NCBI GenBank assembly: GCA_044892505.1
Contig: CM097884.1
Coordinates: 79,546,001-79,610,000 of the forward strand
Reading direction: 5' to 3'
DNA length: 64,000 nucleotides
Source: Schmidtea nova
Lineage: Eukaryota
Position numbers and translations under genes: made by a program. Positions 17,638 through 60,021 of the stretch are shown one piece after another (within the stretch, counting starts at the first letter, position 1; each line of letters starts with the position of its first letter). The notes beneath the pieces are model-generated. The model searched no databases. It worked only from the letters and a program-made list of their open reading frames with translations, and had not been told where the DNA came from.

Positions 17638-17679
17638 GAGGCCAACGAGCCTTATTGAATGACCTAGCTAGGCATTATG

Positions 17680-20426: not shown

Positions 20427-20477
20427 AAAGAGTTAGTACAAAAAGATGAGGAAGTAAGAAAAGAAGCAGAAAAGGAA

Positions 20478-26400: not shown

Positions 26401-29400
26401 CACATACAATCGCCGTAATGTCATCAAACACAGGTCCAGTACTAACCACGACAATAGAGATTAACGGAAGAGAAATCGAAGCAATGATCGACACTGGAGC
26501 AAACATTTCCGCCATCGACATCAAATGGATACCACAGGAGCAAAGACGAGAAATAGAAAGGACAAACGTCCACGTAATTGCATGTAGCAAAGAAGTTGTA
26601 GAAGTAGCAGGAAGATGGTGGGTAAAAATACGCCACTTAAACACAGAAATCGATACGTACGTAGCAGTCATACCAGCATTAAGCGTACCTTGCATTATCG
26701 GAACAGATTTGATGCCAGCATTATTTAAAGAGATTGTAATCGATCTCGGAACAATGAGACTAAAAGATCGCACAGGACAAATATGCGCAATAGAAGCCAA
26801 AGTGACAAGTTCAAAGCAAATGATAATACCCGCAAGAAAGGAGAAAATATGTTATGTAAAAATAGATCCGACAATCCAAGGGGATATGATTTTCGAACCA
26901 AGCAAAAGATTCGAGAAAAGAAAAGCATTGCCAATGGCAAGAGGACTAGTCAACATAAATGATAATGGAGAAATCCCAATAAACGTGGTAAATTTCAACG
27001 AGGAGGATAAAATAATCTACGAAAACGAAAGATTAGGTAAATTAACCCCAATGATGGATATAGAACTACCAATAGCAGGAGCAGAGAAAGATAAAGAACC
27101 AACATGGAATATTGATAGTGAATTATTAAATGAGAATCAAAAGAAGCAATTAGAAAAACTGCTGACAGAGTATAAGGACATATTTGCAACATCCGATTTG
27201 GATCTAGGAACATGTGATGTCACACTACATACAATACCATTAACGGATGAAACACCAATTGCATTAAGACCGTACAAATTAGCGGAAGCACAGAAAGCAG
27301 TAGCGGAAGCAGAAGTGAAGAAAATGTTGGATGCAGAAGTAATCGAACCAAGTTGCTCACCCTGGCAATTTCCAGTGGTAATGGTAAAGAAGAAAGACGG
27401 AACACAAAGATTCTGCATAGATTATCGAAGATTGAACACAGTGACCAAACGAGATACTTACCCATTACCGGACATCAACGAAATGTTACTAACACTACAA
27501 GGAGCAGTACATTTTACGTCGTTAGATCTGAAAAGCGGATATTGGCAAATAAAAATGAAGGAAGAAGATAAGGAGAAAACTGCCTTTACCATCGGTAGAG
27601 ACTTATACCAATTTCGGAAAATGCCATTTGGATTAACCAACGCACCAGCATCATTTCAGAGATGCATGAATTTCGTCACCCATGGAATAAAACAGTGTAT
27701 GGTCTACATAGACGACTTATTGATTTACTCTAGTACATTCGAACAACACATACAGGATATTCGAGATGTATTCGTTAGACTTAGACAGTGGAAGTTAAAA
27801 CTCAAGCCATCAAAATGCGATTGGGCAAAAGAAAAGGTTACATTTTTAGGACATATAGTGTCAGCAAAAGGAAAAGAACCGGATCCTAGAAACATCGACA
27901 AGGTAAAAGAATGTCCAGTACCAAAAACAATAACCCAGATACAAGAGTTTCTTGGATTGTGTGGATACTACAGAAAGTTTATAAAAGATTACGCCGGAAT
28001 AGCAAAACCTATACAGGAACTAGTCAAGAAAGATGTATCATTCATATGGGGAGATGAACAACAAACAGCCTTTGAAACATTGAGAGATAAACTGATAACC
28101 GCACCTATATTGGTACACCCAGACTTCAAGAAGCCATTCCTACTTGCAACGGATGCAAGCGGATATGCAGCAGGAGCAGTATTAGGACAATACGACGACG
28201 AAGGAAAAGAACGGGTAATCGGATATTATAGCCGGACATTCAAAAAGCACGAAAAAAATTACTCGGTGACAGAACGGGAAGCATTAGCAATTATACTAGC
28301 AATTAAACACTTTAAATATTTATTATGGGGACACATCATCTGCATAACAACAGATCACCAACCGCTTGTATGGTTAGGACAGCATAAGGAAACATCCAGT
28401 AGATTAATGCGATGGGCAATGCAGCTACAGGAGTACTCACCAGACATAAAATTTAAATCAGGAAGAGCGAATGCGAATGCAGATTGTATGTCAAGACTGA
28501 CATTTCCAGAACTAACCGATCCTGATGTACAACGAATTTGTGTGTTAATAGCGGAAGATTTAGATTTTAGTGAGTTAAAGAAAGATCAACAGGAAGACAA
28601 AGAATTAGGACAGATCATAGAGTTCCTAACATCTCGAAATATGGAAGTATTCAAGGATAATAAGGAATTAAAGGAACATATAGGAAAGTATCAACATCGA
28701 TATATAATAAATAAAGGATGGTTGTTAATACAAGATGGTGAAAAGAGATCGATGTGTTTACCGGAAAACAGAAGGAAAGAGATAATGATCCAATACCATG
28801 ATGGAAAATTAGGAGGACATATGTCAGAGAAAAAGACAATAAATCGTATGAGACAAAAATATTATTGGCGAACAATGGAAGAAGATATAAAAGAATGGAT
28901 TAAAAATTGTCTAACTTGCGCAACTAGAAAGGATAGTGGGAAGAAATGGAAAAACCCACTACAACCAATGCCAATACCAGCAGAACCAATGACAACTATA
29001 GCAATGGACGTAATAGGACCATTACCAGAAAGTTTAAACGGAAATATTTATATACTGGTAATAACGGATTACCTGACGAAATTCCCGGAAGCATTTGCCA
29101 TGCAAGACCAAAAAGCAAAAACCGTAGCAAAAATTCTAGTGGAAGAAATATGTTGCAGATACGGAACTCCAAAACAAATACTCACAGACCAAGGAACTAA
29201 TTTTATGAGTGAGTTATTGAACGAGGTGACAAACTATTTCAGAATAGCAAAATTGAGAACTTCACCATATCACCCACAAACGAATGGACAAACAGAGAGA
29301 TTCAATGGTACATTGATTAGAATGCTATCCAACTATGTCAGCAGACACCAAACTGATTGGGACGAATACATAAAATTATGTTTAATGGCATACCGAATGT

Positions 29401-32400
29401 CGATACATGCAGCAACAAAACTAAGCCCGTTTCAACTCATGTATGGAAGAGAATGCAACATGCCCATAGATTTAGAGTATCAGCCACCATTATCGCAATA
29501 TATGGAAGATGACGACTACGTAACCAAATTCAAAGAAAGAATGCAGGAAATATGGAAAACGGCAGAACTCAACATTAAATTTTATCAGGAAAGTTATAAG
29601 GACTTACACGACCAGAAGAAAAACGTTAAAGCGAACGACCTAAAACCAGGAGACTGGGTGATAATAGAAACTCCCGAAATAATACCAGGAACGGTTAAGA
29701 AACTCCAAAGACCTGGAAGAGGACCTTATGAAATTATATACAAAAAGGACAATAATGTCAAAGTTAAGCTAATAAATCGACCGTTAATACGACCCATATA
29801 TGTAAACACCTGCAGATGTAAGAAGGTGCCTAAAACGATAACTACAACACCAGAAAATCGAATAATAACTAGATCACAAACAGCCAGGATAAATATGCTC
29901 AGAGCTAATGCAACTGAAGACGACAAAGCAGAAATAAGGCAAAAAGAAATCAGAAATAAAGAAATCATACTGAAGGCGAGAGAGATAATGGGAAGATGGC
30001 ATGTTAGAGACGAAGCAGGCATATCAAGGGACATTAGACATATAATTAGCCGTTACGCACAAGGATTACCAACCGAACCAATTATTTCTGAATTATTGAT
30101 AAAAATCCCGGAAATACTCTTATTGAAAGATGTAGGAGGACAACCAGCCTTACACAATGCGATAGAGTGTAAAAACATTGAAAGAGCAAAAGAATTCCTA
30201 AAAATCGCAAAAGAAACAAACCAAAACTTGGACGTAGGGAATCGTGAACAAGAAACTCCATTAATGACAGCCGCAATCCACCAAGCAGATAAAGAAATGA
30301 TAGATCTATTGATAAAAGCTCATTTCAGTTGGACAGAACGAGATAGAGAAGACAAAACAGTGCTAAATCACGTAATATGGAGTTCTCACCAACCAATGCT
30401 GAAATACATAATAGCTAACTCCACTTGGGAGATAGACGAACTAGTTAAAGGAGACATTATCAAAGAGGCAATCAAAATTGGTAAATGCAACACGATCCGT
30501 AAGTTAATCAAATGGAAACGACCAGAAGATGATACATGGGTCTTAGACATAAACGAAGTGTACAGCGAAGGACAAAACGCACTGTTAAGATACCTTTTGA
30601 AATTTACTTGTGATCAGAAGACATTACTAACCTTATTAGACAGGGGAAACATAAACATCACAAAGAATGAAGAAGAACACAAATTCGATAAAGAGAAGGA
30701 GGTCTTATTCAACAAAATTAGGAAATGGTGTGCGAAACCACTTGATAAACTAATAACATACAAAGACATAAATAATTTTAACGATAAATACCAGACGATA
30801 GTAAGTGAGTACGAGGAATTAGTAAAAATCTTAAACCATCCCGAAAAATGCAAACAGGTTTTGGAGAAAAAAGAAAGAGAAAGTAACAAGAAACTCACAC
30901 CACTCTTCAAAGCAGAAGCACCATATCAAGCTAGACTAGATGCGATACAAGAAAAAGCAAAAGAATTGTTACCGGAATTCGAGAATAGTAAACATGCACT
31001 GGAAATACTCGGTGCATTAGTTGAAAAAGTACACGCATACGCAAAAGGAACATACAATGGTAACGATATAACGACTATAAAAAAGGAGATGCCAGTAACA
31101 TTTTTACTACCAAAGGACAGAATAATGCCCATACATAGAGCTCTACGAAATGGCAAAGATAAAAAAGTAATGGAAATTGCAAGAGTAATGTTAAGCTGCG
31201 GAAGCAACATGAATATGGTAGACGAGAAAGGAGATACACTCATGATATTTGCAGCAAGGGCCAAAACGAAAACAAAAGTGCTGGAAGAACTATACAAAGC
31301 AGGTGCAGGACTTACAGGAAAGACAGACAAAGATAATTCAATTCTGGATGTAGCATTACTAACACATAATTGGGAAATGGTCAACTTCATTAAAACAATC
31401 TCAAATCAGGAAGAAATAGATTACCTAACTGATACGGTCAGGAAACCCAGTGTACTAACAATGATGCATAATGTCGAACTAACAGAAGCAATACTTACGT
31501 GGATAAATCCGAATACTAACGAACCAGCATTCAGGATTAATGAGTTTACAGAACATAACCAAAATTGGTGCATAAGAAGTGCCTTAATAACGTATAAATG
31601 GCCAGAGATATTGAAGATGTTTATGGAAAGAAAGGATCTAAGGATCACAACCAGCCCGAAGGAAGAAAAGTACACAGGCAAATGGAAAGAATTGATGAAG
31701 ACATACATCAACAATTGGATCAAGGCCAAAAAGGAAATCTTGGAATATAAATCCACTAACAAAGTAATACCGGAGCAGGTAGAAACACAAGAATTTGAGG
31801 CAAGTAATCTAACGACATTAGCATATGCAAAATTGATAGAAGAAATCAATGTCGAGGACGACATTTTCGACGAGCCAGGGGGAGATGACAATACAGATAG
31901 TGACGACGATAACAACTCAGAAAATTCGAACGATCACGAACCACCCGATAAAGAGGAAAACGAGAGAAAAGACAAGAAACGAGACAAAGAAGAAAAGAAA
32001 AATGAAGACGAAAAACAAAAAGATGAAGATGGAGAACAAGGAAAAAACGACCAAGGAGATAAAAATGACACCCAAAGAACAGGTTATAAATCAACCATAA
32101 AACCATTCTTCAAACCAGAATTACTATTATTAACAGTGATTTTAACGTTAATTAACCCAAGTCAAGGAATGACATGTGAAGAAAGGGCAATAATACAAAT
32201 AAAAAACGCGAAAGGAATCGAACGAGTATGTTGGTCAAAAAAAGACAAAATCACGGAACAAAATAGCCCGATGGATTGCAGAATCTCAGAACACGAACAA
32301 GAAATCATAGAGATCAACGACCTAGATCTAAATACCTGGTACAAAATATGCACCGTTAGAAAACAAAAGCATCCAAGATCACACAACACAATCGCATGTG

Positions 32401-35400
32401 CAAAATACCAAACACCTAAAGCAGCCATGACAATACAACAGTCACCCAAAGGAGATTACATCATCGAAAAATGTGGAAGAACAGAGACACAGGGAACAGA
32501 AAACAAAAAACCCCAGGCAATAGATAAGCAAACAACACCAACTATACGAATTACAATAGAGAGGCCCGAAGCGAGAGTTGCCACAAACGAAACCGAAAGA
32601 GTGACTTACCAAATGGAAGTATTATGCTTAGCACTCATACTAATAATAATAAAACGACTAGAGGAAGGGATAGAAATCGAAACTATGACAATAACAGAAG
32701 TAGAAGATACACAGAATACTAACATAAAATGTTGGGCGAGGAATAACGAGGAAATCGGCGTAAATGAAATAAGGAAAAGTCGAAAACCAACAACGAATAA
32801 AGTAATTAAAGTATCCGAAGTAAAAGCAGATAAAACGTACAAACTATGCCTACTAGAAAAAGAGAGAAACAAGAAAGGTACCACAAAATGTAAAACATTC
32901 CAACCTGGAGAAGTAATAAAGTTCAGAAGGAGAACGAGGAAGAGAAATAAACAAATCAAGCGGAAAGTAAACATAACATTAGAAATAAAAGAGATAGAAC
33001 CAAATGTGAAAGGAGTATGCTGGAGGAAGTACGAAAAAGAAGTAAATAAAAGAACGACACCACAATGTCGAACAAACACAGGAACAACGACGATTCAAAT
33101 AAAAGGTTTAGAAAGTAAACAAACCTACGAAATATGTTTGGTAAAGAAAAATGATCAGATAACGATAAACGACCTAGAATGCGGAATATATACAACTTCA
33201 TCCGGAACAAGAACCAAAACGTTAACACGGAAAAATAAAAGGAAACAACAAAACAAAGAAAAACCGAAGTACACCACTACCTTTAAAAACAATAAACAAC
33301 CAACAAACCAAGAAGTTACGACGAAACCCGAGAGAAAAACATCAGCAACTCTAACATTATGGAAAATAGAGAATAAAACATTAGAAATATGTTGGATAAT
33401 AGTACAGAAACATATAAGAAGACAATCAAGAGAATGCAGAAAAACAAATAAAGAAATCAAGATCGAAAAACTACAATTTAATAGCGAGTATGAAGTATGC
33501 GCAATAGAAATAATGGACGCACTAGGAAACCAACAAGAAAGATGCGAAACCTACTATACACCAGCGAACGCAACATCAAAAGGAATAACAAGGAAACTCG
33601 AATTCAGGGAACTAAGCCAAACGAATGAACAAATGGACGCAGAAAAAACAATAACCGACCCTCAAGCAAAATGGACACCCGAAGAAGTTATCAAAGAAGT
33701 CAAAAGAAAGCAAGAGGAACGAGAACAATTAATGAGAAAACTAAAGGGACAATATGGAATAATGTTCAACCAAAGCGAATCTATACAAACAGACGAGAAT
33801 AAAGAAATTAAAGAACTAATCGGCTTAGGAATATTAACAGCGACCATACCAGTAATAATCGCGTTATCAGCTATATGGATACGCAAGATAAGCCCAAGAA
33901 AATCAACAACCCAATGGCTAAATATAGATAATACAAGCCATGGAGTCGAAATACTAGAAGCACGAGAAGAACCAAGATCGACCAGGAATGAGAAAGAAGC
34001 AAAAGGCGGAAAACTGGGAATGAACAACGAAGACAAAGAAATAGAAGAGATTAAAAGCAAAGAGACGAAATATGAAAGGCGAACCAGAAGCCTACCGCAG
34101 AGTTCAAAATGGTTGGGTCTAACAATAATATTGACATTAATCAATAGGGAAGAAGCAATAAACCCACAGACAGGGATAAAAGTAATAAATGTTCAGGAAG
34201 TCGAGAAAATATGTTGGTATAGAGAAGATGAACCAATTGGAGAAAATAACCCACTAAAATGCATAATCCGAAAATCCGACCAGGATATAGTACGAATAGA
34301 AGAAATGGATGGAGGGACCATGCATCGGATATGCATAATAAAAAAGGAAAAGAAGTCGGGGCTACCTAAGACAGTCGTATGTCAAAAATATGAAACACCT
34401 AGACTTGAATGGTATAGAGTAAAACCAACAAAGAAAGAAATCAAAAACACAATAGATCAACCAGCAACTCAGATAAGAAACACAACGGATAAACCAGGAG
34501 AAGGGGAGAGAAGCACCAATAACACGAGAGAAAGAATATCACCTCAACAGGAGTGCGTATGCATAGCATTAATACTAGCAATGTCCAAACGTCTCGACAG
34601 AGGAATAATAATAGAACAAATGGCCATAACAATAAGAAAAACAAGCAGCAACAAACTATGCTGGGGAACATACAACGAACCAAGGAAGGAATACCAAGTT
34701 CAGACAAGCGACGAATCACAAACAAACAAGGAAATCGAAATACAAGAAATACAAATGAATGAAGAAGGAAGTATATGTATCTGGGAGAGAGGAATCCAAG
34801 AGGGAATAGAGCATTGCAAGACATTCCAAAAAGGAGAGGTACTGAAATTCGATGAAGAAAAATTAACAAAGACAGAAAGAACTCTGACAATAACAGGACT
34901 CGATCAAACAGTTAAAGGAATATGTTGGACAAAGCATAACCCAGAAGGGGAAGAAGACAATCTAACCCACTGTAAAGAAACAGGGAATAAGGAAAAAGTC
35001 GAATTAAAGAAAATGGAAGTAAATAAGACATACGCGATATGTACCTTCACCAGAAAAGGTTCAGAAAAACCAGAATGCGGATTATATCAGATCTCAGAGA
35101 AACTTCAACAACAGATCAAACCAGGAAACGTGGAAAACCGAACAAAAGAAAATAACGTCAAACAACTACTAAACCGCCATTGGTCTACCCAAGAAGTAAT
35201 GAACAAAGTCAAGAGTCAAATACAAAAAGAGAAGAAGCCAGAGGCTCAAACCCAAAATGAGATAAAAGCGAATCAGAAGAAAATCAAAGCAACAAACCGT
35301 GGAAAAACCGTAATAGGACTAATCAGTATAGGAATATTAATAGCATATGGAATACTGACGACAAGCATAATAGTATATTGGAGATACAGAAAGAGAAACA

Positions 35401-35564
35401 AAGCGACAGCCATACAATGGCCAGATATCAAAATTATGAAACAAGGAATAGAAATACCAGAAGGGATACAAAAAGAATTTCAAAGAAGAACGAAAGGTAA
35501 AGAATTCTGGAAACAAATAGAAGATAAAGAACGATACGACAGAAGGACAATAATGAAGGTATAG
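20478..35564 (+). CDS. pol: 5028-aa polyprotein: Ubl x3 / AT-hook / Bcl-2-like / Env / PR / dUTPase-like / RT / RNase H / IN / ankyrin x2 / two FN3-like membrane proteins
   Basis: Uninterrupted 15-kb ORF in frame with gag. DTGA (26490), YIDD (27705), TDASG, HHCC, D-D-E and GPY motifs are all intact. Confidence 0.96.
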   Translation: METEINRGERKEIWKRGMMVIMPNKSVFRFQYNVKEEVRILFNKVNQMVPGVTKLPREAFLQIEGAPKVKLEVTDIWENMGVVETKRNVMIIKEIEPEEIPPPVRHETRISRIFKGKMIRRRLKEIDELEKKMRKVEVIEDKSEPTPEIDKNEPELTENIQWETNQIAHINMLRNTTREFSDEEEDSDISSLAGDLLNESEDENKEREVIKTSEPTQIKVDEIQKLLDNSLEVIYNEEFMDKKQYRKFMKVLLQMNYKEWLQDREVDMLNRYVGKLIEEPLLNYTISIIINTSTPRIWIKTPFTDDIYRWVEDRLGSSYKNKFIYSQNRLVKKRTHLVETGIWPGEITLLSICDEKEEENLQEVAKEANTCFERRIKPRLEYEKERVLRKNLNSLIEQIIPQVKKHRKELMRSEYEKLKRCIECIRDTSHTRWSQISHDKLIAKMGKTMFRQGKITDLKISVELPNEDTKEIEVVADCTIKELINVINETLVQREPEDEWEDDIIIQYNEHVLWDHDERRLYKIGIWDNHQTIHVIRMDDTPRETAKDEKRERERRKKVVRKLQQIVEIYRNWRTWPEWENVLEKLNLNRRIRTPVEKQWNEKGKCWEPKEGEYEEEYEREMEDDCKPEMGRVCMVTRKATPIDLDGPETVAIWLEKEKQKTEEFVELLKTNAHGKRKIIKGLADFFVVNGEDITCLRKVAKAIAEYKRVNEWCPEQLDHVIRKWRNQEFSQEIPQKVHLRIIYPNKDKEELWVGIAEKIRDIKKKLRYEPPFHLQHQGRSLDNSLEIGITPAQLDLMNTLTVEAIAGQPLKRKEENHKPHGSISTPSPMKSVLTPGTSSRRSETTPRGNREMTPPQPYDVDEILTDSDDMIEELTELTEEKDDNIFERIQELPTTIQATNPGETEVEEEIIIEEINDLAEDETRGTNVENVRLTQEMERWLEERANEPRDVTEETGRATRFVETGTGMDRRPRGRPKTDPANVVIRNKDEKRQDQWEVCLKKLNKIAEIKEKETTPICQGEEWISKTIMEILAIIDPELKKYWRITEISEKAKSLHSAIAPILPEFIKEKTKSNHLDWQGTTTLIKKLTEGAETDNKYVIAIAYTIYNLLTLSRGRPKPTALERHIKNTAKIIAREIEPYIINKGGWETFIKTNQKKTQAKNMKKKFEKILEELEKEQAGTGNAKSSMNLSSIIMMMLIWMISTDSATAFEVFDCDQMKLGEKYSLRGTEQCKDATPVELQKIKKEQWYHVYQEAELIKTMVNECKVQKTRFAFYCGRGHYSAIVMPGTEREPIVLQGEDCEALFKHGEVTTRDKIKIRGKPGMMLQQTYYVAGRITGGEGYCQGETYPIFGVPATNLVVMDTYIVELKSYEAFFEPTTGEMKTLSMCKIDRSMCQTGMSTLVYKPKVNECQLQLLQGAKFDEIQGKTFQEEDDDDKARAKHLKEALENKKQLKPDHREKRIEMRATPTVLITTNQDVGMRFIKGKATLKCSTTVYETNYPGIYVSKQEVPNAKPKIDTMDIKLHLYVNNKMDFLFHRGQASLQKVYYDLINNDCILNREILKTKLAVAITNPDSAMPLLPLREGHFGRVVGEAMYVYICEKTHAPLAATTQLKPGTCTNELEIDYKGKVRYVQPVTRIINPPGFEPNPFNCSNAYGPLYQKPDGKWVMFPGRSEVIAPREFELMQLSKDRQFSDVDVSNNGIYSPKDLEAARQNILFPARREALLSNIVTITGGTNYREGPNYELLLSPAHFKKATENMMKAMWGRFLIFGQMMAGILGVILIIQIVRVIITQMLACFDIYKREKKVNWKMVVGFLPFLAKTMVLHGHSKDIHRIKRLLKILAKMKGTDEEVGRKFKKIMNDEQARQQLKRERKGLWERVKGYKTQNDSSDDDDDDDDYKGGQVYKNQAPQYIEKNPADAWKCYAPPPTMYQEPLQGGRTTTMQMMPMTNVYPMIPEDYKMRRCRSVDPQGDAHTIAVMSSNTGPVLTTTIEINGREIEAMIDTGANISAIDIKWIPQEQRREIERTNVHVIACSKEVVEVAGRWWVKIRHLNTEIDTYVAVIPALSVPCIIGTDLMPALFKEIVIDLGTMRLKDRTGQICAIEAKVTSSKQMIIPARKEKICYVKIDPTIQGDMIFEPSKRFEKRKALPMARGLVNINDNGEIPINVVNFNEEDKIIYENERLGKLTPMMDIELPIAGAEKDKEPTWNIDSELLNENQKKQLEKLLTEYKDIFATSDLDLGTCDVTLHTIPLTDETPIALRPYKLAEAQKAVAEAEVKKMLDAEVIEPSCSPWQFPVVMVKKKDGTQRFCIDYRRLNTVTKRDTYPLPDINEMLLTLQGAVHFTSLDLKSGYWQIKMKEEDKEKTAFTIGRDLYQFRKMPFGLTNAPASFQRCMNFVTHGIKQCMVYIDDLLIYSSTFEQHIQDIRDVFVRLRQWKLKLKPSKCDWAKEKVTFLGHIVSAKGKEPDPRNIDKVKECPVPKTITQIQEFLGLCGYYRKFIKDYAGIAKPIQELVKKDVSFIWGDEQQTAFETLRDKLITAPILVHPDFKKPFLLATDASGYAAGAVLGQYDDEGKERVIGYYSRTFKKHEKNYSVTEREALAIILAIKHFKYLLWGHIICITTDHQPLVWLGQHKETSSRLMRWAMQLQEYSPDIKFKSGRANANADCMSRLTFPELTDPDVQRICVLIAEDLDFSELKKDQQEDKELGQIIEFLTSRNMEVFKDNKELKEHIGKYQHRYIINKGWLLIQDGEKRSMCLPENRRKEIMIQYHDGKLGGHMSEKKTINRMRQKYYWRTMEEDIKEWIKNCLTCATRKDSGKKWKNPLQPMPIPAEPMTTIAMDVIGPLPESLNGNIYILVITDYLTKFPEAFAMQDQKAKTVAKILVEEICCRYGTPKQILTDQGTNFMSELLNEVTNYFRIAKLRTSPYHPQTNGQTERFNGTLIRMLSNYVSRHQTDWDEYIKLCLMAYRMSIHAATKLSPFQLMYGRECNMPIDLEYQPPLSQYMEDDDYVTKFKERMQEIWKTAELNIKFYQESYKDLHDQKKNVKANDLKPGDWVIIETPEIIPGTVKKLQRPGRGPYEIIYKKDNNVKVKLINRPLIRPIYVNTCRCKKVPKTITTTPENRIITRSQTARINMLRANATEDDKAEIRQKEIRNKEIILKAREIMGRWHVRDEAGISRDIRHIISRYAQGLPTEPIISELLIKIPEILLLKDVGGQPALHNAIECKNIERAKEFLKIAKETNQNLDVGNREQETPLMTAAIHQADKEMIDLLIKAHFSWTERDREDKTVLNHVIWSSHQPMLKYIIANSTWEIDELVKGDIIKEAIKIGKCNTIRKLIKWKRPEDDTWVLDINEVYSEGQNALLRYLLKFTCDQKTLLTLLDRGNINITKNEEEHKFDKEKEVLFNKIRKWCAKPLDKLITYKDINNFNDKYQTIVSEYEELVKILNHPEKCKQVLEKKERESNKKLTPLFKAEAPYQARLDAIQEKAKELLPEFENSKHALEILGALVEKVHAYAKGTYNGNDITTIKKEMPVTFLLPKDRIMPIHRALRNGKDKKVMEIARVMLSCGSNMNMVDEKGDTLMIFAARAKTKTKVLEELYKAGAGLTGKTDKDNSILDVALLTHNWEMVNFIKTISNQEEIDYLTDTVRKPSVLTMMHNVELTEAILTWINPNTNEPAFRINEFTEHNQNWCIRSALITYKWPEILKMFMERKDLRITTSPKEEKYTGKWKELMKTYINNWIKAKKEILEYKSTNKVIPEQVETQEFEASNLTTLAYAKLIEEINVEDDIFDEPGGDDNTDSDDDNNSENSNDHEPPDKEENERKDKKRDKEEKKNEDEKQKDEDGEQGKNDQGDKNDTQRTGYKSTIKPFFKPELLLLTVILTLINPSQGMTCEERAIIQIKNAKGIERVCWSKKDKITEQNSPMDCRISEHEQEIIEINDLDLNTWYKICTVRKQKHPRSHNTIACAKYQTPKAAMTIQQSPKGDYIIEKCGRTETQGTENKKPQAIDKQTTPTIRITIERPEARVATNETERVTYQMEVLCLALILIIIKRLEEGIEIETMTITEVEDTQNTNIKCWARNNEEIGVNEIRKSRKPTTNKVIKVSEVKADKTYKLCLLEKERNKKGTTKCKTFQPGEVIKFRRRTRKRNKQIKRKVNITLEIKEIEPNVKGVCWRKYEKEVNKRTTPQCRTNTGTTTIQIKGLESKQTYEICLVKKNDQITINDLECGIYTTSSGTRTKTLTRKNKRKQQNKEKPKYTTTFKNNKQPTNQEVTTKPERKTSATLTLWKIENKTLEICWIIVQKHIRRQSRECRKTNKEIKIEKLQFNSEYEVCAIEIMDALGNQQERCETYYTPANATSKGITRKLEFRELSQTNEQMDAEKTITDPQAKWTPEEVIKEVKRKQEEREQLMRKLKGQYGIMFNQSESIQTDENKEIKELIGLGILTATIPVIIALSAIWIRKISPRKSTTQWLNIDNTSHGVEILEAREEPRSTRNEKEAKGGKLGMNNEDKEIEEIKSKETKYERRTRSLPQSSKWLGLTIILTLINREEAINPQTGIKVINVQEVEKICWYREDEPIGENNPLKCIIRKSDQDIVRIEEMDGGTMHRICIIKKEKKSGLPKTVVCQKYETPRLEWYRVKPTKKEIKNTIDQPATQIRNTTDKPGEGERSTNNTRERISPQQECVCIALILAMSKRLDRGIIIEQMAITIRKTSSNKLCWGTYNEPRKEYQVQTSDESQTNKEIEIQEIQMNEEGSICIWERGIQEGIEHCKTFQKGEVLKFDEEKLTKTERTLTITGLDQTVKGICWTKHNPEGEEDNLTHCKETGNKEKVELKKMEVNKTYAICTFTRKGSEKPECGLYQISEKLQQQIKPGNVENRTKENNVKQLLNRHWSTQEVMNKVKSQIQKEKKPEAQTQNEIKANQKKIKATNRGKTVIGLISIGILIAYGILTTSIIVYWRYRKRNKATAIQWPDIKIMKQGIEIPEGIQKEFQRRTKGKEFWKQIEDKERYDRRTIMKV
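21330..22890 (+). other. Three ubiquitin-like (beta-grasp) domains in the polyprotein (~21330-21535, 21849-22090, 22689-22890)
   Basis: Second copy LKISVELPNEDTKEIEV...TIKEL...IQYNEHVL..ERRLYKIGI....TIHVI follows the ubiquitin pattern. The other two are weaker. No terminal GG. Confidence 0.55.
23540..23940 (+). other. Bcl-2-like domain in the polyprotein
   Basis: BH2-like IEPYIINKGGWETFIK (compare WIxxxGGWxxF), preceded by helical segments. The BH1 position lacks the canonical NWGR. Confidence 0.6.
24048..25970 (+). other. env: Envelope glycoprotein domain, chuvirus G-like: signal 24048-24107, ectodomain from 24108, TM ~25782-25856
   Basis: Signal-like SIIMMMLIWMISTDSATA, then FEVFDC...SL....C...Q...V.EC.......CG..H.S.....C....G. 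About 560 aa of Cys-rich ectodomain and a TM helix. Confidence 0.8.
26430..26780 (+). other. Aspartic protease domain
   Basis: AMIDTGANIS and CIIGTDLM. Confidence 0.93.
26795..27055 (+). other. Degenerate dUTPase-like beta domain between PR and RT
   Basis: IPAR......V...ARGLV.....IPINVVN......I....RLG pattern. Catalytic motifs not evident. Confidence 0.55.
27130..28500 (+). other. Reverse transcriptase and RNase H
   Basis: RFCIDYRRLN, LDLKSGYWQI, MPFGLTNAP, YIDD, FLGH, TDASG, EREALAI, TDHQPL and NADCMSR. Confidence 0.97.
28530..29880 (+). other. Integrase (HHCC, DDE, GPY/F)
   Basis: H...GGH...CLTC, MDVIGP, TDQG, YHPQTNGQTERFN and GPYEI. Confidence 0.96.
30050..31650 (+). other. Two blocks of ankyrin repeats in the polyprotein
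   Basis: GQPALHNAI, ETPLMTAA, KTVLNHVI and QNALL, then MPIHRAL, GDTLMIFAA and NSILDVAL, at ~33-35-aa spacing. Confidence 0.85.
32121..35564 (+). other. Two tandem paralogous type-I membrane protein units with Cys-containing FN3-like repeats (4 + 3 modules)
   Basis: Signals at 32121-32168 and 34110-34157, TMs at 33816-33881 and 35310-35381. Repeated module CW...C...I..L....Y.IC...C..Y.T. Confidence 0.7.
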
Positions 35565-35689: not shown

Positions 35690-36046
35690 ATGACCGAACA
35701 GGACGAAACAACTGAAATAACTATGGCCATGAGATGGAAAGCACAATGCGATTTATTAGTACGGGCAGTCAACTCATTACAGAACCAATTAGCGGAAAAA
35801 CAAATGTTACTATCAGAAAGTTACAATAATTGTTTTGAACAATTACACAGAATAGAGGAACAACAAAGAGTGATAACCGAGCTCACCAGAGAAAATCAAA
35901 CTATAAGCAACATCAATCAAAGACAAGCGATAGAAATAAACCACTTGACACGAGGAGAAAGAGAAGAATCTGAAGAAGGATGGATGAGTTGGGTAATAAA
36001 TAGATTAAACAACGAAGCGGAACCAGATTCAACGAATGAGCCATAG
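35690..36046 (+). CDS. Small coiled-coil protein, 118 aa
   Basis: Clean ATG to stop, heptad pattern, same codon style as the element. Confidence 0.7.
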   Translation: MTEQDETTEITMAMRWKAQCDLLVRAVNSLQNQLAEKQMLLSESYNNCFEQLHRIEEQQRVITELTRENQTISNINQRQAIEINHLTRGEREESEEGWMSWVINRLNNEAEPDSTNEP

Positions 36047-36138
36047 ATAAATAAAGCGAAAAACTGTAAATATGTAAAAATAAAAACAAGAAAAATCAAA
36101 AATAAATGACAAGTCGAATGTATATATTATTGTAGAAA

Positions 36139-37515
36139 ATGGACAGAGAAGAACGAACAATCGAAATCTTGAGATTAGAAAACAGAAAATGGAGCAAGAG
36201 GCTCACATGCGGGAAGTGTAACAATTTATTACGAGAACCTAGACAAACGATATGTGGATGTAGAATATGTACAAAATGTATACAAGAATTAGATGCAACA
36301 GGAATAACAACATGCCCAGAATGTAAAGAAGGAAGAATAGTGTTGGACGAAACCAGAACGGATAAAGCAACCCAGAGAGAAATTATGAGCACCATAACGG
36401 AGTGCGTAAATACACCTTGTACATGGCAAGGACAAATAAGCAATCTAGAAAATCACATGGAAAATTGCGAAGAGAAAAGAGCCGAATGCGAGAAGTGTCA
36501 ACAGATAATAATTCTAAAGAAGAAAGAACAACACAAGGACGAATGTAAAGAAGAAGAAATCGCATGCAAGTATTGTGAAACTCGAGAGACAAGGAGGAGA
36601 ATCGAAGAAGAACACTTAAATATAACAGAGGAGAAAGTATGCGGACAATATGTAAGCAAATGTCCAAACAATTGCGAAATAACAGAAGAAATAAAGTTAC
36701 ATGAACATTGGAAAATATGTACCGAAAGGCCAAGAGAATGTCCATATAACAAGCATGGATGCAAGGAAAAGCGGACGCGAAAAACAATGAAACAACACTT
36801 GGAGGAAGCAGCATTAATGCATGTGGAGATGACAAACGAGGCGGCAAAAGAAACAGAACAGACAATCCAGAAACTGGAAAAGGAAGTAGAATCACATAAA
36901 ATAATGATGAGTTTACTACTAGAAACAAGAGAGCAGTTTGAACTAACTCGCAAAAGAATGGAAGAAAAAATAATAGCCATAGAAGAATTGGGAAAAGGAA
37001 TGAAAATACAATATAATCAATTAATACGAGAAATTGACGAAAGAAAGGACTTACCAATTGCACCTTACCTATGGAAAATAACAGATTTTAGAGACAAACT
37101 AACAGAGGCCCGAAATATGACTAAAACAGCAGTAATAAGCCCACCATTTTATTTATGGAAAAATGGGGTTAAAATAAGATTGAAAGTATACCCAAATGGA
37201 GACGGAAGAGGACAAGGAACACACGTGTCAATATTTTTCTCGTTATGTAAAGGAGAATACGATGACCTAATAGAATGGCCCTTGAAAGTAGGAGTCATTA
37301 TAAGAATCAAAAGTATAGGAAAACCAGTAGAAAAGTTCTTTGAAACAGACAAACATACGAGTACAAGCGAAAAACCAACAACAGAATGCGGACTAGCAGC
37401 AGGAGAACCAATGTTTATAAGGAAAGAAAACCTATGGGAGCGACTGTATGCAGACACGCTATACATAGAGATGGAGAGGCATGAGAAAACAGACAGAAAA
37501 GGATGGTTGGCGTAA
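36139..37515 (+). CDS. TRAF-family protein (RING, TRAF zinc fingers, coiled coil, MATH), intronless
   Basis: CGKC...CGCRICTKC...CPEC, several TRAF-type zinc fingers, and MATH motifs YLWKITDF, SPPFY and YPNGDGRGQGTHVSIF...GEYDDLIEWP. Confidence 0.95.
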   Translation: MDREERTIEILRLENRKWSKRLTCGKCNNLLREPRQTICGCRICTKCIQELDATGITTCPECKEGRIVLDETRTDKATQREIMSTITECVNTPCTWQGQISNLENHMENCEEKRAECEKCQQIIILKKKEQHKDECKEEEIACKYCETRETRRRIEEEHLNITEEKVCGQYVSKCPNNCEITEEIKLHEHWKICTERPRECPYNKHGCKEKRTRKTMKQHLEEAALMHVEMTNEAAKETEQTIQKLEKEVESHKIMMSLLLETREQFELTRKRMEEKIIAIEELGKGMKIQYNQLIREIDERKDLPIAPYLWKITDFRDKLTEARNMTKTAVISPPFYLWKNGVKIRLKVYPNGDGRGQGTHVSIFFSLCKGEYDDLIEWPLKVGVIIRIKSIGKPVEKFFETDKHTSTSEKPTTECGLAAGEPMFIRKENLWERLYADTLYIEMERHEKTDRKGWLA

Positions 37516-37626: not shown

Positions 37627-38689
37627 ATGGGAAATATAGAGGTAACCTTACAAGAAGTAACCGTACATCAAGACGAAATGATCAGAAATCACATGGAGCG
37701 GATTGGGATATGGATTCACGCCTATTATCGAAAACAGGAGGAATTAGAAAGACAAACCCAAGCACTAAGAGAAGCCGAGAAATCGAATCAAAGAAGTCGA
37801 GAAAAAATAGAAGAAGTCTACAAACTGCTAAGACAACAAAACGAATACTACAAAGGGATGATGAAAGAGCGACGAGAGGATAGGGATAGACAACAGATAA
37901 AAACAGACCATAAGATTCAGTCAATCACAGAACAAGCAAGATATTGGAAAAAAAGAGGCAAAAGACTCTTACAAGGAAGCAAGGGAGATAATAGAACGAA
38001 CAGCGTACAGCGATGATTGGAAACTGTTTAAAGAGATCGATGAATTAAAAGAAGAATTAGGGAAAAAGATCAGTCAAGAAGCGTCAAATAAAGTATGGAG
38101 TAAGAAAAGACAACAATTCATCAGGGAACAAGCCAAGAAAATTAAAGAATTAACTCACCAAGTGCAAAGAATGGGAGAAGATTTAGCCAATCAAGAACAA
38201 TTAAAAGGTATGCTGACCGGAATGTGGAATCACAAGGAAGAAAACATGAAAAGAGACATAAATGGATATCAAGGAGTGATTACCCAGAAGAAAATAGAAT
38301 TAAAAAGAACTAAAGAAAGACTGGAAGAAACGAGGCAGAGTTATGAAGAGAACATAACAAATTTGACAAAAGAAAACGAAGAACTGAGAAAGAAGCTAAC
38401 AGAAAAACCAGTACCCACAAAGGAAACAAGTATCACAGCAGCAGTGACCGAAATGATAGAGAAAGAAGAGAGAGAGAAAAAATTAGCAGAACTAGAAAAA
38501 CAAATAGAAACCCTAACAGAGCAGGCGAACTATCTGGAATACTTATTAGATGAAGAGATCCAGATATCCCACACGTACCGAGAGGAAGTGGAAATGTGGA
38601 GGAGTACGGTAATATGGATGCCACTCCCCATAAATCAGGTGGAACCTCAAGACGAAGGTTTTCACGAACCTAACGAAACCCTCGTGTAA
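37627..38689 (+). CDS. Long coiled-coil protein (~353 aa) split by a 1-nt frameshift in an A7 run at 37948-37954
   Basis: Removing one A joins ORF 37627 to an open frame (KEAKDSYKEARE...) that continues into ORF 38162-38689. Confidence 0.7.
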
Positions 38690-38768: not shown

Positions 38769-39329
38769 ATGAGAAAGCTCGCAATACCAATACTCCTAGG
38801 GTTAATAACCATCACCCTACAGAGAGAAGATCTACAACTTACCGAAACCCAATTACGAGTTCTACCCGACAAAACCTACCAAAAAGTAGACAGCCTAATC
38901 GAAGAAGTAATTAAAGAAATCAACGAATTCCGACAGAAATATCCCCACAATCAAGATCATCAAATCCAACAAATCTTAGATAACCAACAACTGAAACTAA
39001 AAGAAACCCAAAAAACCCTGAAAGAAGGTAGAGAGCCCATAAAAAGCCTAGCCCAAGCTGAAATAGAATATCAAGAGAAATGGATCATAGCAATCATCAT
39101 AATCCTCTCAATCAGCGTAACTATCATCGCAATCACAATCCTGATTGCCTCCTACCGGATAAAAATCCTCAAACAGAAACAAACCATCGTCAACCAAACA
39201 TCAAGGCGAGACAACCGAACCCAAAGACGTATGAGAAACCATCTAGATCGAATTCAGACCCACTACGAATTAGCTACAATCAATGAGAGAACTCAAACCC
39301 AACCCAATGCGAGCCGGAGGATCGAATAG
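38769..39329 (+). CDS. Small type-I membrane protein (signal peptide, helical ectodomain, TM, basic tail), 186 aa
   Basis: MRKLAIPILLGLITITLQ and WIIAIIIILSISVTIIAITILIA. Confidence 0.75.
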   Translation: MRKLAIPILLGLITITLQREDLQLTETQLRVLPDKTYQKVDSLIEEVIKEINEFRQKYPHNQDHQIQQILDNQQLKLKETQKTLKEGREPIKSLAQAEIEYQEKWIIAIIIILSISVTIIAITILIASYRIKILKQKQTIVNQTSRRDNRTQRRMRNHLDRIQTHYELATINERTQTQPNASRRIE

Positions 39330-40853
39330 ACTTTGTGAACATTTCTGATGAACCTTTGACTATCCTGTGACAATAATCTGATAATATTCAACTATCCTAT
39401 GACAAATCTTATGATGTATATAAATTCTATCACCTTAAGTGATTTTCTTTGTGTTTATGTGTATATCTGTAAAACTTTTTATGTATGATGTTATAAGTAG
39501 ATATGTATAATTAATTGCGGGACGCAATTTTAGGGGTCCCCGAGTGATGTTGGGCCCACCAATTGGTCTAAAAAGGCAAAAATATTGTACTAATTTAAAC
39601 AATAAATACAAATAATAACCACAAAAAACATTCGAAAAACCTAAATTAAAAATTAAAATAAAATAATAAATAATAAATAATAATTACTAAATTTCCAGCA
39701 AAGGAAGAAAATCAAATTGACACGAGAACGAGCAGTATGGGGGTCTGAAATAAGAAAATTACAAATAAAATCAAATAAAAGTACAATTAATTGGTTAATT
39801 ACTTGAAAAAATCGAGACCACCCAGCGAGAAATCTGAACCGGAAATTTAAAATGGTTTATATTAAAATAAAATAACAAAATTACTTTGATGGACGGCCTG
39901 ATCCTGATTGGTCAATCTGACCAACTGGATCAGTATAAATACCGATCCAAAAATCATACAAAAAACACCTAAAAACTTAGCTACCGAACTAATCTATCAT
40001 AGTCAGTTACACCAACTTTGATACGACGAATATTGTGTAAAATTTTGGAAACGCTGCATCTTGGATTTTAAGAGTAAATTTTGTTGTATTGTATTTGCAT
40101 TAATTTTATGATATGTTTACATGATTCCCATTTATTTCATTTCATTTAATATAATTTATTACTATTAATTGCTCTATTTTTCTTATGCTATTATTTTATG
40201 ATATGATAAATATACTTCCTCAGTAGCTCACGCTGCGAGGGAGCAAGCCGTAAATGTGGGATTTCACCGTTCCACAAGATGGTGAGCAGAGTTTTTATTG
40301 GTATTTTTTATTTAATTTAATTTTATCGGAGGTTTCACGTTACGGTAAAGTTGTGCAGGGACAAGGACACGAGTAAAATTAGTAGACAGTGTTTAACATT
40401 AGTCAATTAACATTCGATCAGACAGGAGAGAATAAACTACAGTATCAATTATCATGTCAATCGATTTCGCATATGCACACGATTTTTTTTGAACCCACAT
40501 AGCTGATCGAAATAATGTCCGGACACACCGAGACGATTTCGACATTTCAACGATAATTTCAATTAGGATATAAATAACCACATAATCAGATCGACGCTAC
40601 TGATTGAATAAGTAAAATCGTAACCTGATCGCTGTAAATAGCGCAGGTGATAGTATGTAAATTTTTAATAAACATATCCCGATCGCTGTAGATAGCGACG
40701 GTGTTAATTGAATAGCTTAGAAAATATTTTTTTATTCCTCCCTTTCATATTTTTTTTGTTTTGTTGATCAACGAGAGAAACACATTTCATCAGGTCTCAC
40801 CAAAATTTGCGGATTCGTCACAGTAAAATTTATTAGCATTATTATTTTCTCAG

Positions 40854-41354
40854 ATGAAATCAACGATACTGGATGAATTTCTAACAACCCAACGTCGTGT
40901 GGCACGGGACGAAAATCCTCAAATCCGGACGCAACAGAAGAAATTGAAGCCGCTTCCACAGGAACTTCTCAGAACGCTAAATGCATTGATGTATAAATGG
41001 AGACGGGAACTAGGAAAGAAATGTCCATTTTCGATTTGGGCCGGTGGATTAGATACCATCATATATCGTGGAGGCCCCGGATGGGAAATTCAGGACGAAA
41101 GAGACCGGGAGACGACAGCTCTGTTCATCATAGTGGTGACAGACAGTGAAGGAAATCCAACGACAGTGATCCATTGGGGATATGTCTCACCGCTCAAGTT
41201 GCTTCAATTCGGGTTGATTCCGAATCACCTACCGAAAACGTGCCATGGACGCCCCAAACTAAACTGTTCGATCGCTCACATCCGACGAGATCCAGTCAAT
41301 CACGGATTGCATATTACCCCCGTTCACGGCCTCAAGCGAAGCGTTTTTTACTAA
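40854..41354 (+). CDS. LTR ORF-A, 3' LTR copy
   Basis: Same as 14369-14869 except Y>C and M>I. Confidence 0.6.
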   Translation: MKSTILDEFLTTQRRVARDENPQIRTQQKKLKPLPQELLRTLNALMYKWRRELGKKCPFSIWAGGLDTIIYRGGPGWEIQDERDRETTALFIIVVTDSEGNPTTVIHWGYVSPLKLLQFGLIPNHLPKTCHGRPKLNCSIAHIRRDPVNHGLHITPVHGLKRSVFY

Positions 41355-41537
41355 ACATTATATTCACATTTTTATGAACTAAACTATTTCCATAAATTAA
41401 ATGGTATTGATCTGTGTTTTGTTTGTTCTTAGTTAAATTTATTTCTATTTATTTAATCATATAATTTTTTACTCGACGGATAATATTAATCATTGGTAAC
41501 ATAATTGCTGCATCATAAAATGGGTTTGTTATTTAGT

Positions 41538-42128
41538 ATGACGGAAACTAGCCAACAGCGGGAATTGGATAAGGCGTGGAGAATCCGCCGAGCCTTAGAA
41601 AAGGAGCTAAATCAGGAAAAAGCATTACGAGCCAAGGCAGAAGCTCAGATTCAGTATTTACGGACCAGCTGGTTCACCCCAGCCCGTATGAAGGAGCAGA
41701 TGAGTCGGACAGAAAGGGCTCAAAAGACAGCTGACGATTATCGCACCGAATGGGAGGCCACAAAAATTGAGTTGCGCCGATGTTTCCATTCGGTGACGAC
41801 CTCATTTATCGAGTCCGAATTGAAAGCACAAATCCGACCCATCACCTACCAGAAATGGGTAGGAGAACAGAAAGTGGCCTGCTCGGTCAGTACGGACACC
41901 GATGGGCTCGAGGCAACCACAGTGCAGAGTCGGGTGGAAACCACCACTGTACCAAACCCCGTCGGGAAAACGACCAAGCGAAAGCGAATCGGTTCCAAGC
42001 GCCGTCGCCAAAGAAAGCTGTTTTCTCAACAGTTGCAGACACAAGTAACCACTATGGCAGAAATGTCGGAAACCGAGTGGTTAGCAGAGATGTTCCCTCC
42101 TGAAGGAATTTTCAAAGAATTTCTGTAA
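41538..42128 (+). CDS. LTR ORF-B, 3' LTR copy
   Basis: Same as 15053-15643 except A>T and L>F. Confidence 0.6.
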   Translation: MTETSQQRELDKAWRIRRALEKELNQEKALRAKAEAQIQYLRTSWFTPARMKEQMSRTERAQKTADDYRTEWEATKIELRRCFHSVTTSFIESELKAQIRPITYQKWVGEQKVACSVSTDTDGLEATTVQSRVETTTVPNPVGKTTKRKRIGSKRRRQRKLFSQQLQTQVTTMAEMSETEWLAEMFPPEGIFKEFL

Positions 42129-43179
42129 CAGATAGAATACGATGTCAGATTTTGGAGTTAATTAAATCTTTGCTCGTTTTTGTTTTTGTTGTTGTTATTT
42201 CCTAAGTATTTCCTTCGATTACCTAATTCATATAATTAAATTACCCGTCACACAACGAAAGGAGTAGCGATAAAGAACTTAAATATTATCAAATTCGTAG
42301 TTTCGTTTTGCTTGTTTGTTTTTTTTTGTTTTTACGATAAATACATAACCTCACACACACAATAGAACAATAATTGCGTAAGTCCTTCTACGGCCGCGTG
42401 AACCCGTAAGCATAAAGGGGGAGTAGTCCTAGCAATAGTGCTCACCTGCCCTCATTGCTTAACCACCCTGCGCATCACCAACTTGGTTATCAAGGGAAAT
42501 AATCAAGGGCGCTCGAGTGTAGCTTACGACTATTTATGCATGATCATGGATGGGAGATCCCTAGCAATCATTAGAATTTTTACCAAACCGTCCATGAACC
42601 CAGCAAATATATAAGTTCAAATTCGAAATTGATTTATTAAATTTGTAATTAATTTTCGCTTTACGTATTTACACGCATTTCAATGTACATTAAAACAAAA
42701 AGAAAACACATAAGGTATAGTAACTACAAGAGTTACTTACATATATCCCCCCGGAAAAAGTGCGGCGCATGTGGAAACCATTGTCTGGAGCGAACACACT
42801 TTTTATTTACATATTTATTTACAGGTGTATATAGATTTGCGACAACTTTGGGGAGGTAGAGAAAACAAATAAAAAAAGGGTTTATTGTAGGTTTTCTTTT
42901 TATTATAAGTGTTTTTAGGTTATTTTATGGTGCGTATCAACCGTGTAGGGGTATTTTCCGGGTGTCCTACTGTTCTTTCACGTACGCAATATGCGAAAGA
43001 TTTCTTTTTGGATCTTGTATTTGATGAAGGTCTGTCTTGTTGATTGTTTTTTAGAATCGATTTTTTGTTTGATTGTTTGTTCTTTATGTCTTGAGTTTCA
43101 AATGATGTGTTTGGTTTGTATGTTTGTTCGGTGTTGTTTGGTATTGTTGTATTTGTCTGAAAATCATTCGTTTGATTTT

Positions 43180-49020: not shown

Positions 49021-49806
49021 TTAACAGCCTTGAATCATTATCGACGACGCTCCACCCCCGCCATTACAGATAGATGCTACTCCTAGCTCATTCTCCTTTA
49101 AATTATAAGCCAAGTGTAAAATCAACCTCGCACCAGACATTCTGAACAAAATTAGAATTCATAACAAATATAATGGAACTTGTTACCCTATTGGATGACC
49201 CATACTTACAGCTCCTCCGTGAATATTAACTTTTGATGGATCGATTCCTGTAACAGTTTTTATATTTGCCAATACAACAACTGCAAAAGCCTCATTTATT
49301 TCCCACATTGTGATATCTTCAGCAGTTTTATCACAAAGCTTAAGTAGTTTTCTGATTGATTCTGCCGGAGCTATTGGGAAATCGATTGGTTGCAGTGCAG
49401 CATCCGCAAAACCTTTAGGAGATAAGAAAACTACGGAAATAATTTTAATACCTAATATTTTTGCCATTGGAGTTAATTTGTACTTTTTTACAGCGCTTTC
49501 TGATACAATTAATAACGAAGCCGCGCCATCGTTCAATGAACTAGCATTGGCAGCTGTAACTGTACCGTTTGTTTTAAACGCTGCCTTAAGAGATTTGAAT
49601 TTATCAAAATTTACTAGCTTATATTCCTCATCTTCATCAAATATCATTTCCTCATTTTTATTTTTAATAGGAACAGCAACTATTTCCTTTTTGAAGACTC
49701 CATTTTTAGCACTATTTTGACTTTTCTTGTATGAAGCTAAGGCGAATTGATCTTGATCATCTCTACTAATATTCAATGTAGCTGCAGTATTTTCTGCACA
49801 AACTCC
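49021..49806 (-). CDS. ACAT1: Acetyl-CoA acetyltransferase (thiolase, ACAT1-like), last three exons of a host gene
   Basis: [42 protein letters not shown] and [14 protein letters not shown] introns of ~39 bp (near 49413-49451) and ~45 bp (49142-49186). Confidence 0.9.
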
Positions 49807-60013: not shown

Positions 60014-60021
60014 ACTTTACT

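Follow-up and report, generated by a model that had tools for sequence, protein, structure and literature searches.

A full-length TRAF gene carried by a Burro-like LTR retroelement in Schmidtea nova

The expansion of the TRAF family in planarians is a published puzzle, with 121 MATH domains in one account (PMC6109357) and 282 contigs in another (PMC7586133). The window analyzed here, a 64,000-nt stretch of Schmidtea nova DNA, contains a TRAF-like open reading frame inside a retroelement. This raises the question of whether the gene is a recent passenger or an established part of the element, what it might do there, and how far such elements account for the TRAF expansion. The original prediction described a captured, intronless mRNA that acts as a signaling modulator and suggested that such elements could inflate or drive the expansion.

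The TRAF gene and its carrier element

Positions 36139-37515 of the plus strand form a single open frame of 458 aa, running from ATG to TAA without N, with a RING (36208-36324), zinc fingers extending to about 36800, a coiled coil (36811-37038), and a MATH domain (37066-37473). Pfam detected MATH_2 at residues 310-445 (E 4e-21) and zf-TRAF at residues 166-220 (E 5e-7), and the RING at residues 24-62 gave a weak match (E 0.02-0.03). The N-terminal RING-zinc region aligned with the solved N-termini of TRAF6, TRAF2, and TRAF5 (E 2e-12 to 1e-10), with all eight RING cysteines in register, and the best PDB chains for the MATH domain were those of TRAF3, TRAF5, and TRAF2. An AlphaFold model based on a 13-row alignment (pLDDT 83.6, pTM 0.40) showed a single helix at residues 225-300 (pLDDT about 90), which is the coiled coil ahead of the MATH domain, and a Foldseek search with this model returned TRAF3, TRAF2, and TRAF5 (E 3e-15 to 1e-14). 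The gene is a TRAF of the TRAF2/3/5-like type, with a MATH/TRAF-C domain, a RING plus TRAF zinc fingers, and a coiled coil; the complete architecture claimed for it was borne out by Pfam, by the alignment with solved structures, and by AlphaFold and Foldseek.

The CGC in the RING (C39-G40-C41) had been regarded as a departure from the usual sequence. It is present, but the same CGC occurs in the RING of every host full-length TRAF read (L011, L012, L015, L021, L033, L141, and L142) and in the named Dendrocoelum TRAFs, indicating that it is a planarian trait and not a special change of this gene. The cysteine serving as the fourth ligand is likewise the same as in the host planarian TRAFs. The window RING carries K26 and N28 at the positions of an I and an L in TRAF6, which we take to be E2-binding residues; TRAF2 also has no hydrophobic residues at these positions. 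At the second position past the first RING cysteine, six of seven host TRAFs and two of six element lineages have a hydrophobic residue. When R393, Y395, and the serine triad of what we assume to be TRAF2 numbering were placed onto the aligned window motif, the alignment to TRAF3 gave K349 for the arginine, Y351 as a kept tyrosine, and a T407-S408-T409 triad, so that the sites were partly kept. According to PMC6125299, R393, Y395, and the serine triad are hot spots through which Px(Q/E)E peptides of receptors are bound. The corresponding residues varied among the element lineages and among hosts, and the serine triad was variable in host planarian TRAFs.

The prediction that a retroelement carries the gene was confirmed. 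The TRAF sits between two LTRs, at 13063-16123 and 39548-42605 on the plus strand, of a 29,543-bp element (13063-42605) with TG...CA ends and a 4-bp target duplication, AATA, at 13059-13062 and 42606-42609. The LTRs were 99.7% identical over 3,062 nt, with six base differences and three gap positions, and the insertion is therefore very young. Each LTR contains two ORFs without a Pfam match, one of 166 aa (14369-14869, again at 40854) and one of 202 aa (15035-15643, again at 41520), both of balanced base composition, and a strong acceptor-like, T-rich CAG lies immediately before the ATG of the first.

All internal features lie on the plus strand. The 5' LTR is followed by a stretch (16130-16147) that presumably resembles a tRNA-Pro primer-binding site and by an accessory ORF of 153 aa (16498-16959) with an IAP-type C-terminal RING (zf-C3HC4_3, E 3e-11) and a T-rich CAG 3 nt before its ATG; Pfam found no BIR domain in the window element. 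In the leader before gag (17432-17932), a 29-bp unit is repeated 7 times in tandem and a 32-bp unit 8 times. The gag frame with CCHC knuckles (18510-20426) ends at a stop in the window copy and continues into the long ORF in the related copies L085, L048, L165, and L167. The following 5,045-aa polyprotein frame (20427-35564) encodes a fusion glycoprotein, protease, RT, RNase H, integrase, ankyrin repeats, and a long C-terminal region. The Pfam matches were Monjiviricetes_fusion (mononegavirus-type, E 2e-71), RT (E 3e-37), and Ank (E 5e-13), and the fusion glycoprotein lies in frame upstream of the protease, between gag and pol. Bcl-2-like (E 0.08, about 23577-23996) and ubiquitin-like (E 0.055) segments fell below the cut-off and lie at the published Burro places, and a phmmer match to ribosomal S18 (E 0.009) was treated as chance. 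The tail of the polyprotein (32400-35500) consists of repeated units bearing Cys and Trp, with membrane-like segments and no Pfam match.

Downstream of the polyprotein, a coiled-coil-like ORF of 118 aa, orfA (35690-36046), has a T-rich TAG 3 nt before its ATG and is found upstream of the TRAF in all six lineages. The TRAF is followed by a coiled-coil gene, orfB/orfC (37627-38689), which is split into two frames in the window copy and reads as a single frame in 16 of the 20 copies sampled (362-372 aa), and by orfD (186 aa, 38769-39329), which by sequence reading has a hydrophobic N-terminus and one membrane-like segment and belongs to no clear family. Neither the gag stop nor the split orfB/C of the window copy was found in most of the relatives read. 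Elsewhere in the window, remains of DNA transposons with terminal inverted repeats, including Tc1/mariner-type DDE pieces and an ISXO2/Merlin-like transposase piece, were observed at 1544-4012 and 6263-7505. Two host-like exons were also seen, one with a thiolase match at 49186-49806 on the minus strand (E 4e-33) and one with a TBP-like domain at 60667-61221 on the plus strand (E 9e-14), the latter inside inverted repeats at 59293-63777.

Copies, lineages, selection, and expression signal

All 40 scored matches to the window TRAF DNA were full-length at 95-100% identity. A 29-mer count in the genome gave about 271 TRAF copies for the window family (reversed control, 0), and an RT 29-mer gave 413 copies, probably including sister families. 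On C1, at least 41 of 61 exact RT matches had an exact TRAF match 9.3-10.1 kb downstream on the same strand. Among 20 window-family copies sampled in genome order, the whole TRAF was present in every one (92-95% DNA identity) and its frame was open in 16; the polyprotein end was retained in 18 and orfC plus orfD in 19, and L098 was a fragment next to part of an LTR. At their 3' ends, these copies (L081-L100) had LTRs of two subtypes, about 74-76% alike, on internal regions that were 94-95% alike, with the window subtype in 5 of 20, which suggests either LTR exchange or faster change of the LTRs. Four copies (L085, L088, L093, and L161) were internally deleted and retained the accessory block with the TRAF.

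A MATH family search revealed a sister family, F2, with 132 copies (reversed control, 0) and a TRAF about 52% identical at the same place; one F2 copy adjoins an (AAT)n-rich satellite that extends over more than 20 kb (L044-L046, G000:C2:179.24-179.27 Mb), with a GIY-YIG/Penelope-like RT frame noticed by eye. In total, at least six element lineages carry a TRAF at the same place with 37-77% identity. The lineages among the motif places fetched had TRAFs 77, 70, 64, 45, and 37% identical to that of the window, always after orfA, and the order polyprotein-orfA-TRAF-orfB/C was the same in six lineages. The identities fell in step for the TRAF (77, 70, 51, 44, and 38%), protease (96, 89, 76, 75, and 51%), and orfA (75, 64, 52, 44, and 34%); the protease and ankyrin trees were weak, and co-divergence of TRAF and element rests on this rank order. 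The gene is thus not a one-off passenger nearly identical to a host gene, being present in about 271 copies and at least six lineages with about 30% identity to host genes. No TRAF was found in the 16-17-kb env-bearing gypsy relatives (4 of 4 copies), which spread without it. These relatives comprise two families (L061-L076; G000:C2:299.55 Mb, C1:5.98 Mb, C2:246.27 Mb, and C1:179.39 Mb) with gag-Bcl-2-like-env-pol frames of 3,393-3,401 aa and a downstream ORF of 469-483 aa without a Pfam match.

The most abundant matches belonged to family X, with about 1,225 TRAF motif matches (reversed control, 0). Three copies (L121/L101/L102/L103, G000:C1 1.51-1.54 Mb; L122-L124/L109, 5.78-5.81 Mb; L125-L127/L110, 10.27-10.29 Mb) were traced to their LTRs and measured 25-27 kb, with LTRs of 4.2-5.6 kb at 99.7-100% identity. 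Their ORFs were a RING ORF, a frame of about 1,040 aa with SUMO-like, protease, and ankyrin parts, orfA, the TRAF, a 399-aa BIR...RING protein, orfC, and two more. The BIR...RING protein adjoins the TRAF and is an IAP (BIR E 5e-16; best solved match cIAP1); because Pfam found no BIR in the window element, the TRAF-IAP pairing is limited to family X. This family also carries a second IAP-type RING. Env, RT, integrase, and gag were not found in the three copies traced to LTRs, and another copy, L105, gave a weak gag match. The lineages represented by L112/L119 and L162 also have no RT-integrase and have kept the TRAF. In family X the TRAF frame was open in 12 of 17 loci.

Pairwise dN/dS was calculated with two transition weights, and both values are given. 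The TRAF of the window family gave 0.12/0.17 over 20 copies (RING-zinc region, 0.13/0.20; MATH, 0.10/0.13), which was the level of the ankyrin region (0.11/0.15), and the polyprotein tail, at 0.30/0.42, is under weaker selection. The F2 TRAF gave 0.12/0.17 in 10 copies that were chosen by score and are therefore biased toward intact ones, and in family X the values were 0.19/0.27 for the TRAF (16 of 17 loci) and 0.22/0.32 for the IAP (15 loci). TRAF variants shared by copies were more synonymous than private ones in the window family, F2, and family X (p 1e-4, 1.5e-4, and 0.014, respectively), the pattern expected if selection acts via replicating lineages; for the family X IAP, the difference was not significant (p 0.4). 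Between the window family and F2, the TRAFs had a dS of about 0.9-2.2 and a dN of 0.36-0.40, and the dN of RT-IN was 0.09. The frequency of A at four-fold sites was 0.73 in the window TRAF and 0.58-0.65 in three other element TRAFs and the element RT-IN (RT-IN, 0.65), compared with 0.30-0.39 in six host TRAFs. The long residence suggested by the A-rich codons therefore agrees with the codon style, the six-lineage clade, and the saturated dS between families.

The TRAF ORF starts 23 kb from the 5' end of the element, on a strand poor in T and directly behind a predicted 3' splice acceptor (36121-36135, plus strand), a T-rich run ending in TAG 3 nt before the ATG. All five internal accessory ORFs have a YAG 2-3 nt before the ATG, four of them with a T-rich run. 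Other ATGs had a YAG in 109 of 513 cases and a YAG plus T-rich run in 4 of 513, and the respective counts for spacer ATGs were 11 of 52 and 2 of 52. Comparison of 4/5 with 2/52 gave p about 2e-4, calculated by hand with a T>=0.4 cut-off that was set after the sites had been seen. The signal before the TRAF was kept in 20 of 20 copies, and a T-rich YAG occurred 1-3 nt before the ATG in all six lineages read despite their differing N-termini, suggesting a spliced sub-genomic mRNA as the likely source of the protein. The acceptor could be joined by cis or by spliced-leader splicing, with which the signal would be equally compatible. An AUG supplied by the spliced leader was rejected as the start, the spacing to the ATG (0-4 nt) not being frame-consistent. 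Several donor-like words occur in the LTR and leader and none stands out. The junctions in L093, L088, and L085, considered as reverse-transcribed spliced copies, were microhomology deletions, and contig joints from three runs of unrecorded kind were short and contained no splice evidence.

Element and host TRAFs in the genome

A generic TRAF-type MATH motif gave 1,852 matches in the genome (control, 98), recovering 19 of 20 window-family copies, 10 of 10 F2 copies, and 25 of 30 host loci. The first 100 places comprised 69 of family X, 29 of other element types, and 2 that were chance-like. A Cys before the MATH "KG" marks element TRAFs and was present in 0 of 30 host loci; the Cys form of the motif accounted for 1,746 matches, or 94% of the 1,852 (control, 2), these counts being of motif matches and not of intact genes. 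The remaining 106 matches include chance and mutated copies, so that after correction for recall the host TRAF-type loci number at most about 130; the MATH family search contained about 55 host-type rows. Of about 1,750 element-type loci, 57 were examined, and 56 of these were flanked by element ORFs or an LTR, the exception (L137) being a decayed, unplaced piece. One genome thus holds two separated TRAF pools, about 1,750 element copies and at most about 130 host loci, which a one-residue marker tells apart, and planarian gene-family counts and RNA-seq "TRAF" signals need an element filter.

Trees were built with FastTree (89 rows) and IQ-TREE under LG+G4 (27-37 rows), the latter leaving out near-identical element rows and the long or gappy host rows L033 and, later, L031; all carry long-branch and composition warnings. 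The element TRAFs formed one clade (97 with FastTree on 89 rows; 96/92 and 96/91 with IQ-TREE; 88/33 in a MATH-only tree) nested in the planarian TRAF group (96; 99/97; 100/99), with the unnamed protein P0035 as its sister. Two host clades each contained Dendrocoelum genes together with genes of this genome, and the element TRAFs fell outside both, which suggests, on long and compositionally odd branches, that the gain is older than that split. This placement would fit one ancient acquisition of a planarian TRAF. Grouping of the element TRAFs with host L015 or L011 was rejected (AU p 0.0002 and 0.0001, respectively). The best identity to the host TRAFs found was about 30-35%, no protein in a library of 1.84 billion exceeded about 35% identity to the window TRAF, and a homologous-protein search returned nine distant matches, none of them close. 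By comparison, host L015 was 70% identical to D. japonica TRAF-2A, in keeping with a triclad host.

Intronlessness had been taken as a sign of mRNA capture. It does not prove capture, since seven host TRAFs (L011, L012, L015, L021, L033, L141, and L142) are equally single-ORF from RING to MATH; no carrier element was seen in their flanks where these were read. No parent gene of the element TRAF was identified among the host genes, and the closest host TRAFs have no coding-region intron either. Three host TRAFs with a single ORF (L141, L142, and L153; G000:C3:43.80-43.90 Mb) are related to Dendrocoelum TRAF-2/TRAF-5. The host cluster at C2:405-455 Mb, in which RING and MATH lie in separate frames, formed its own clade (100/100) and has host codon style. 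This region (L011-L040) is dense in tandem, near-identical TRAFs, many with a RING plus one zinc finger and a MATH in separate frames, and in L024 a single frame holds two MATH domains. The proposed comparison of host and element copies therefore gave one old element clade and no seeding of the host expansion. Elements inflate TRAF counts, as anticipated, with 94% of the motif matches, but they did not seed the sampled host genes, which lie in other clades and have host codons; the host expansion is a separate tandem cluster.

Possible roles and relation to known systems

The earlier suggestion of a signaling modulator is plausible on the sequence evidence. The explanation we lean toward, at somewhat better than even confidence, is a fixed accessory gene under purifying selection in a Burro-type clade, likely spliced and likely a pro-survival TNFR/TRAF scaffold. 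The protein would form trimers, would act jointly with the IAP-type RING, Bcl-2-like, and ankyrin cargo, and may tilt host TNFR/TRAF signaling toward survival of the element-expressing cell. TRAF domains trimerize and connect receptors to kinases and cIAP ligases (PMC6125299), and RNAi of host TRAF in S. mediterranea kills animals with raised cell death (PMC7586133). The lineages that have no RT or integrase and retain the TRAF count in favor of a selected, pro-survival accessory gene. In contrast, the spread of the TRAF-less gypsy relatives counts against it, as does the finding that RNAi of BURRO1, which is PIWI-silenced and expressed on SMEDWI-2 loss, left the smedwi-2 phenotype unchanged (PMC8532177). 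A broader and more doubtful proposal is that Burro elements are complex retroviruses with a spliced TNF-receptor-survival kit (TRAF, IAP, Bcl-2-like, and ankyrin) and that family X owes its spread to this kit, which would keep cells expressing the element alive. If so, most of the TRAF coding capacity of this genome would belong to parasites and could influence the death decisions of the animal's stem cells.

K26, N28, and the altered hot spots fit a decoy equally well and so count against a pro-survival scaffold. Such a decoy, which we consider unlikely, would be a selected, likely spliced TRAF that poisons host TRAF trimers or occupies receptor tails, dampening anti-element innate immunity. 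The uneven distribution of the hydrophobic RING residue between host and element TRAFs speaks for it, and the ankyrin cargo could act like IkB. However, all eight RING cysteines and the zinc fingers are kept at a dN/dS of 0.13-0.20, whereas classic dominant-negative TRAFs have no RING; TRAF2 also lacks the hydrophobic RING residues, and the serine triad is variable in host planarian TRAFs too. Rather improbable in our judgment is a role in the element cycle, as an adaptor in the assembly or traffic of particles or in the ubiquitin-mediated clearance of a restriction factor, with host death signaling incidental. Selection via replicating lineages, a MATH surface changed in five of six lineages, and the neighboring orfA and orfB/C, which are equally fixed and have no known family, would suit such a role. 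Against it, family X, which makes no Gag, Env, RT, or integrase and could obtain particle functions from a helper, has kept the TRAF; in addition, the IAP and Bcl-2-like cargo nearby points to the death pathway, and the TRAF-less gypsy relatives spread well. Still less probable is a benefit to the host, in which copies aid survival of stress or injury as a mutualist or partly domesticated cassette. The pol-less family X is very abundant with TRAF and IAP frames open, and private variants have a pN/pS below 1 (0.27-0.45), but the latter is expected if sampled copies sit on unsampled replicating branches. The LTR pairs at 99.7-100% identity mark the copies as young and mobile, stops and frameshifts accumulate (4 of 20 and 4 of 17), and BURRO1 is PIWI-silenced (PMC8532177). 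A host mRNA recently caught and carried along neutrally is hardly credible given about 30% identity to the closest host TRAF, a dN/dS of 0.12-0.27, six lineages, element codon style, and the rejected grouping with L015 or L011.

Burro elements have been known to carry MATH/TRAF cargo since 2007, and section 7 of PMC6431247 lists MATH_TRAF_C, BIR, ankyrin, and BCL2-like motifs for Burro / GYPSM1 and proposes, as a guess, that Burro meddles with apoptosis and ubiquitination in the role of "tinkerer". Compared by description with that source, the window element resembles Burro in its size of about 30 kb, in a single very large Gag-Env-PR-RT-RH-IN frame that has env placed between gag and pol, and in the ankyrin cargo of an ORF of about 5,000 aa; the ubiquitin-like and Bcl-2-like cargo that Burro also has is matched here only below the cut-off. 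For published Burro, that source names no TRAF part other than a MATH_TRAF_C domain, placed within ORF1 in S. mediterranea and in an accessory ORF further upstream in D. tigrina, whereas in the window element the gene is complete from RING through zinc fingers and coiled coil to MATH, follows the polyprotein, and has an acceptor-like signal to itself. Section 7 contains no TRAF selection, monophyly, share of genomic TRAFs, or pol-less TRAF+IAP family. TRAF or MATH as whole words were absent from PMC11410931 and 10.64898/2025.12.11.693146. A full-length element-borne planarian TRAF was not found in the literature searched; Grohme 2018 with its supplements and Jurka 2007, outside that scope, may show such ORFs. 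Nor did these searches turn up the clade of the full-length downstream gene, the selection on it, its acceptor, its 94% share, or a pol-less family with TRAF and IAP.

A TRAF-like gene in another genetic parasite, ORF111L of the fish large DNA virus ISKNV, also acts on TNFR-pathway proteins; likened here by description and not by sequence, this one tested viral TRAF that was found is reported to be pro-apoptotic via TRADD and caspase 8 (PMC3352826), so that a pro-survival direction is not a given. The element TRAFs share their architecture, CGC RING, and single-ORF coding region with planarian host TRAFs as far as these are described (Smed-TRAF-2A/B, D. japonica TRAF-2A, and D. lacteum TRAF-2/4/5; PMC7586133, PMC6109357). 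They differ from them in the low identity (about 30%), A-rich codons, separate clade, and Cys before "KG", and are dispersed in LTR elements, in contrast to the tandem clusters of host TRAFs. Complex retroviruses modulate the host through accessory genes, small ORFs that lie 3' of pol and are each preceded by a splice acceptor. The window element differs from these in its Ty3/gypsy carrier, its recognizable host signaling genes, and splicing that is predicted only. An identity of about 30% to host TRAFs allows the element TRAF to be assayed, or targeted by knockdown, separately from them.
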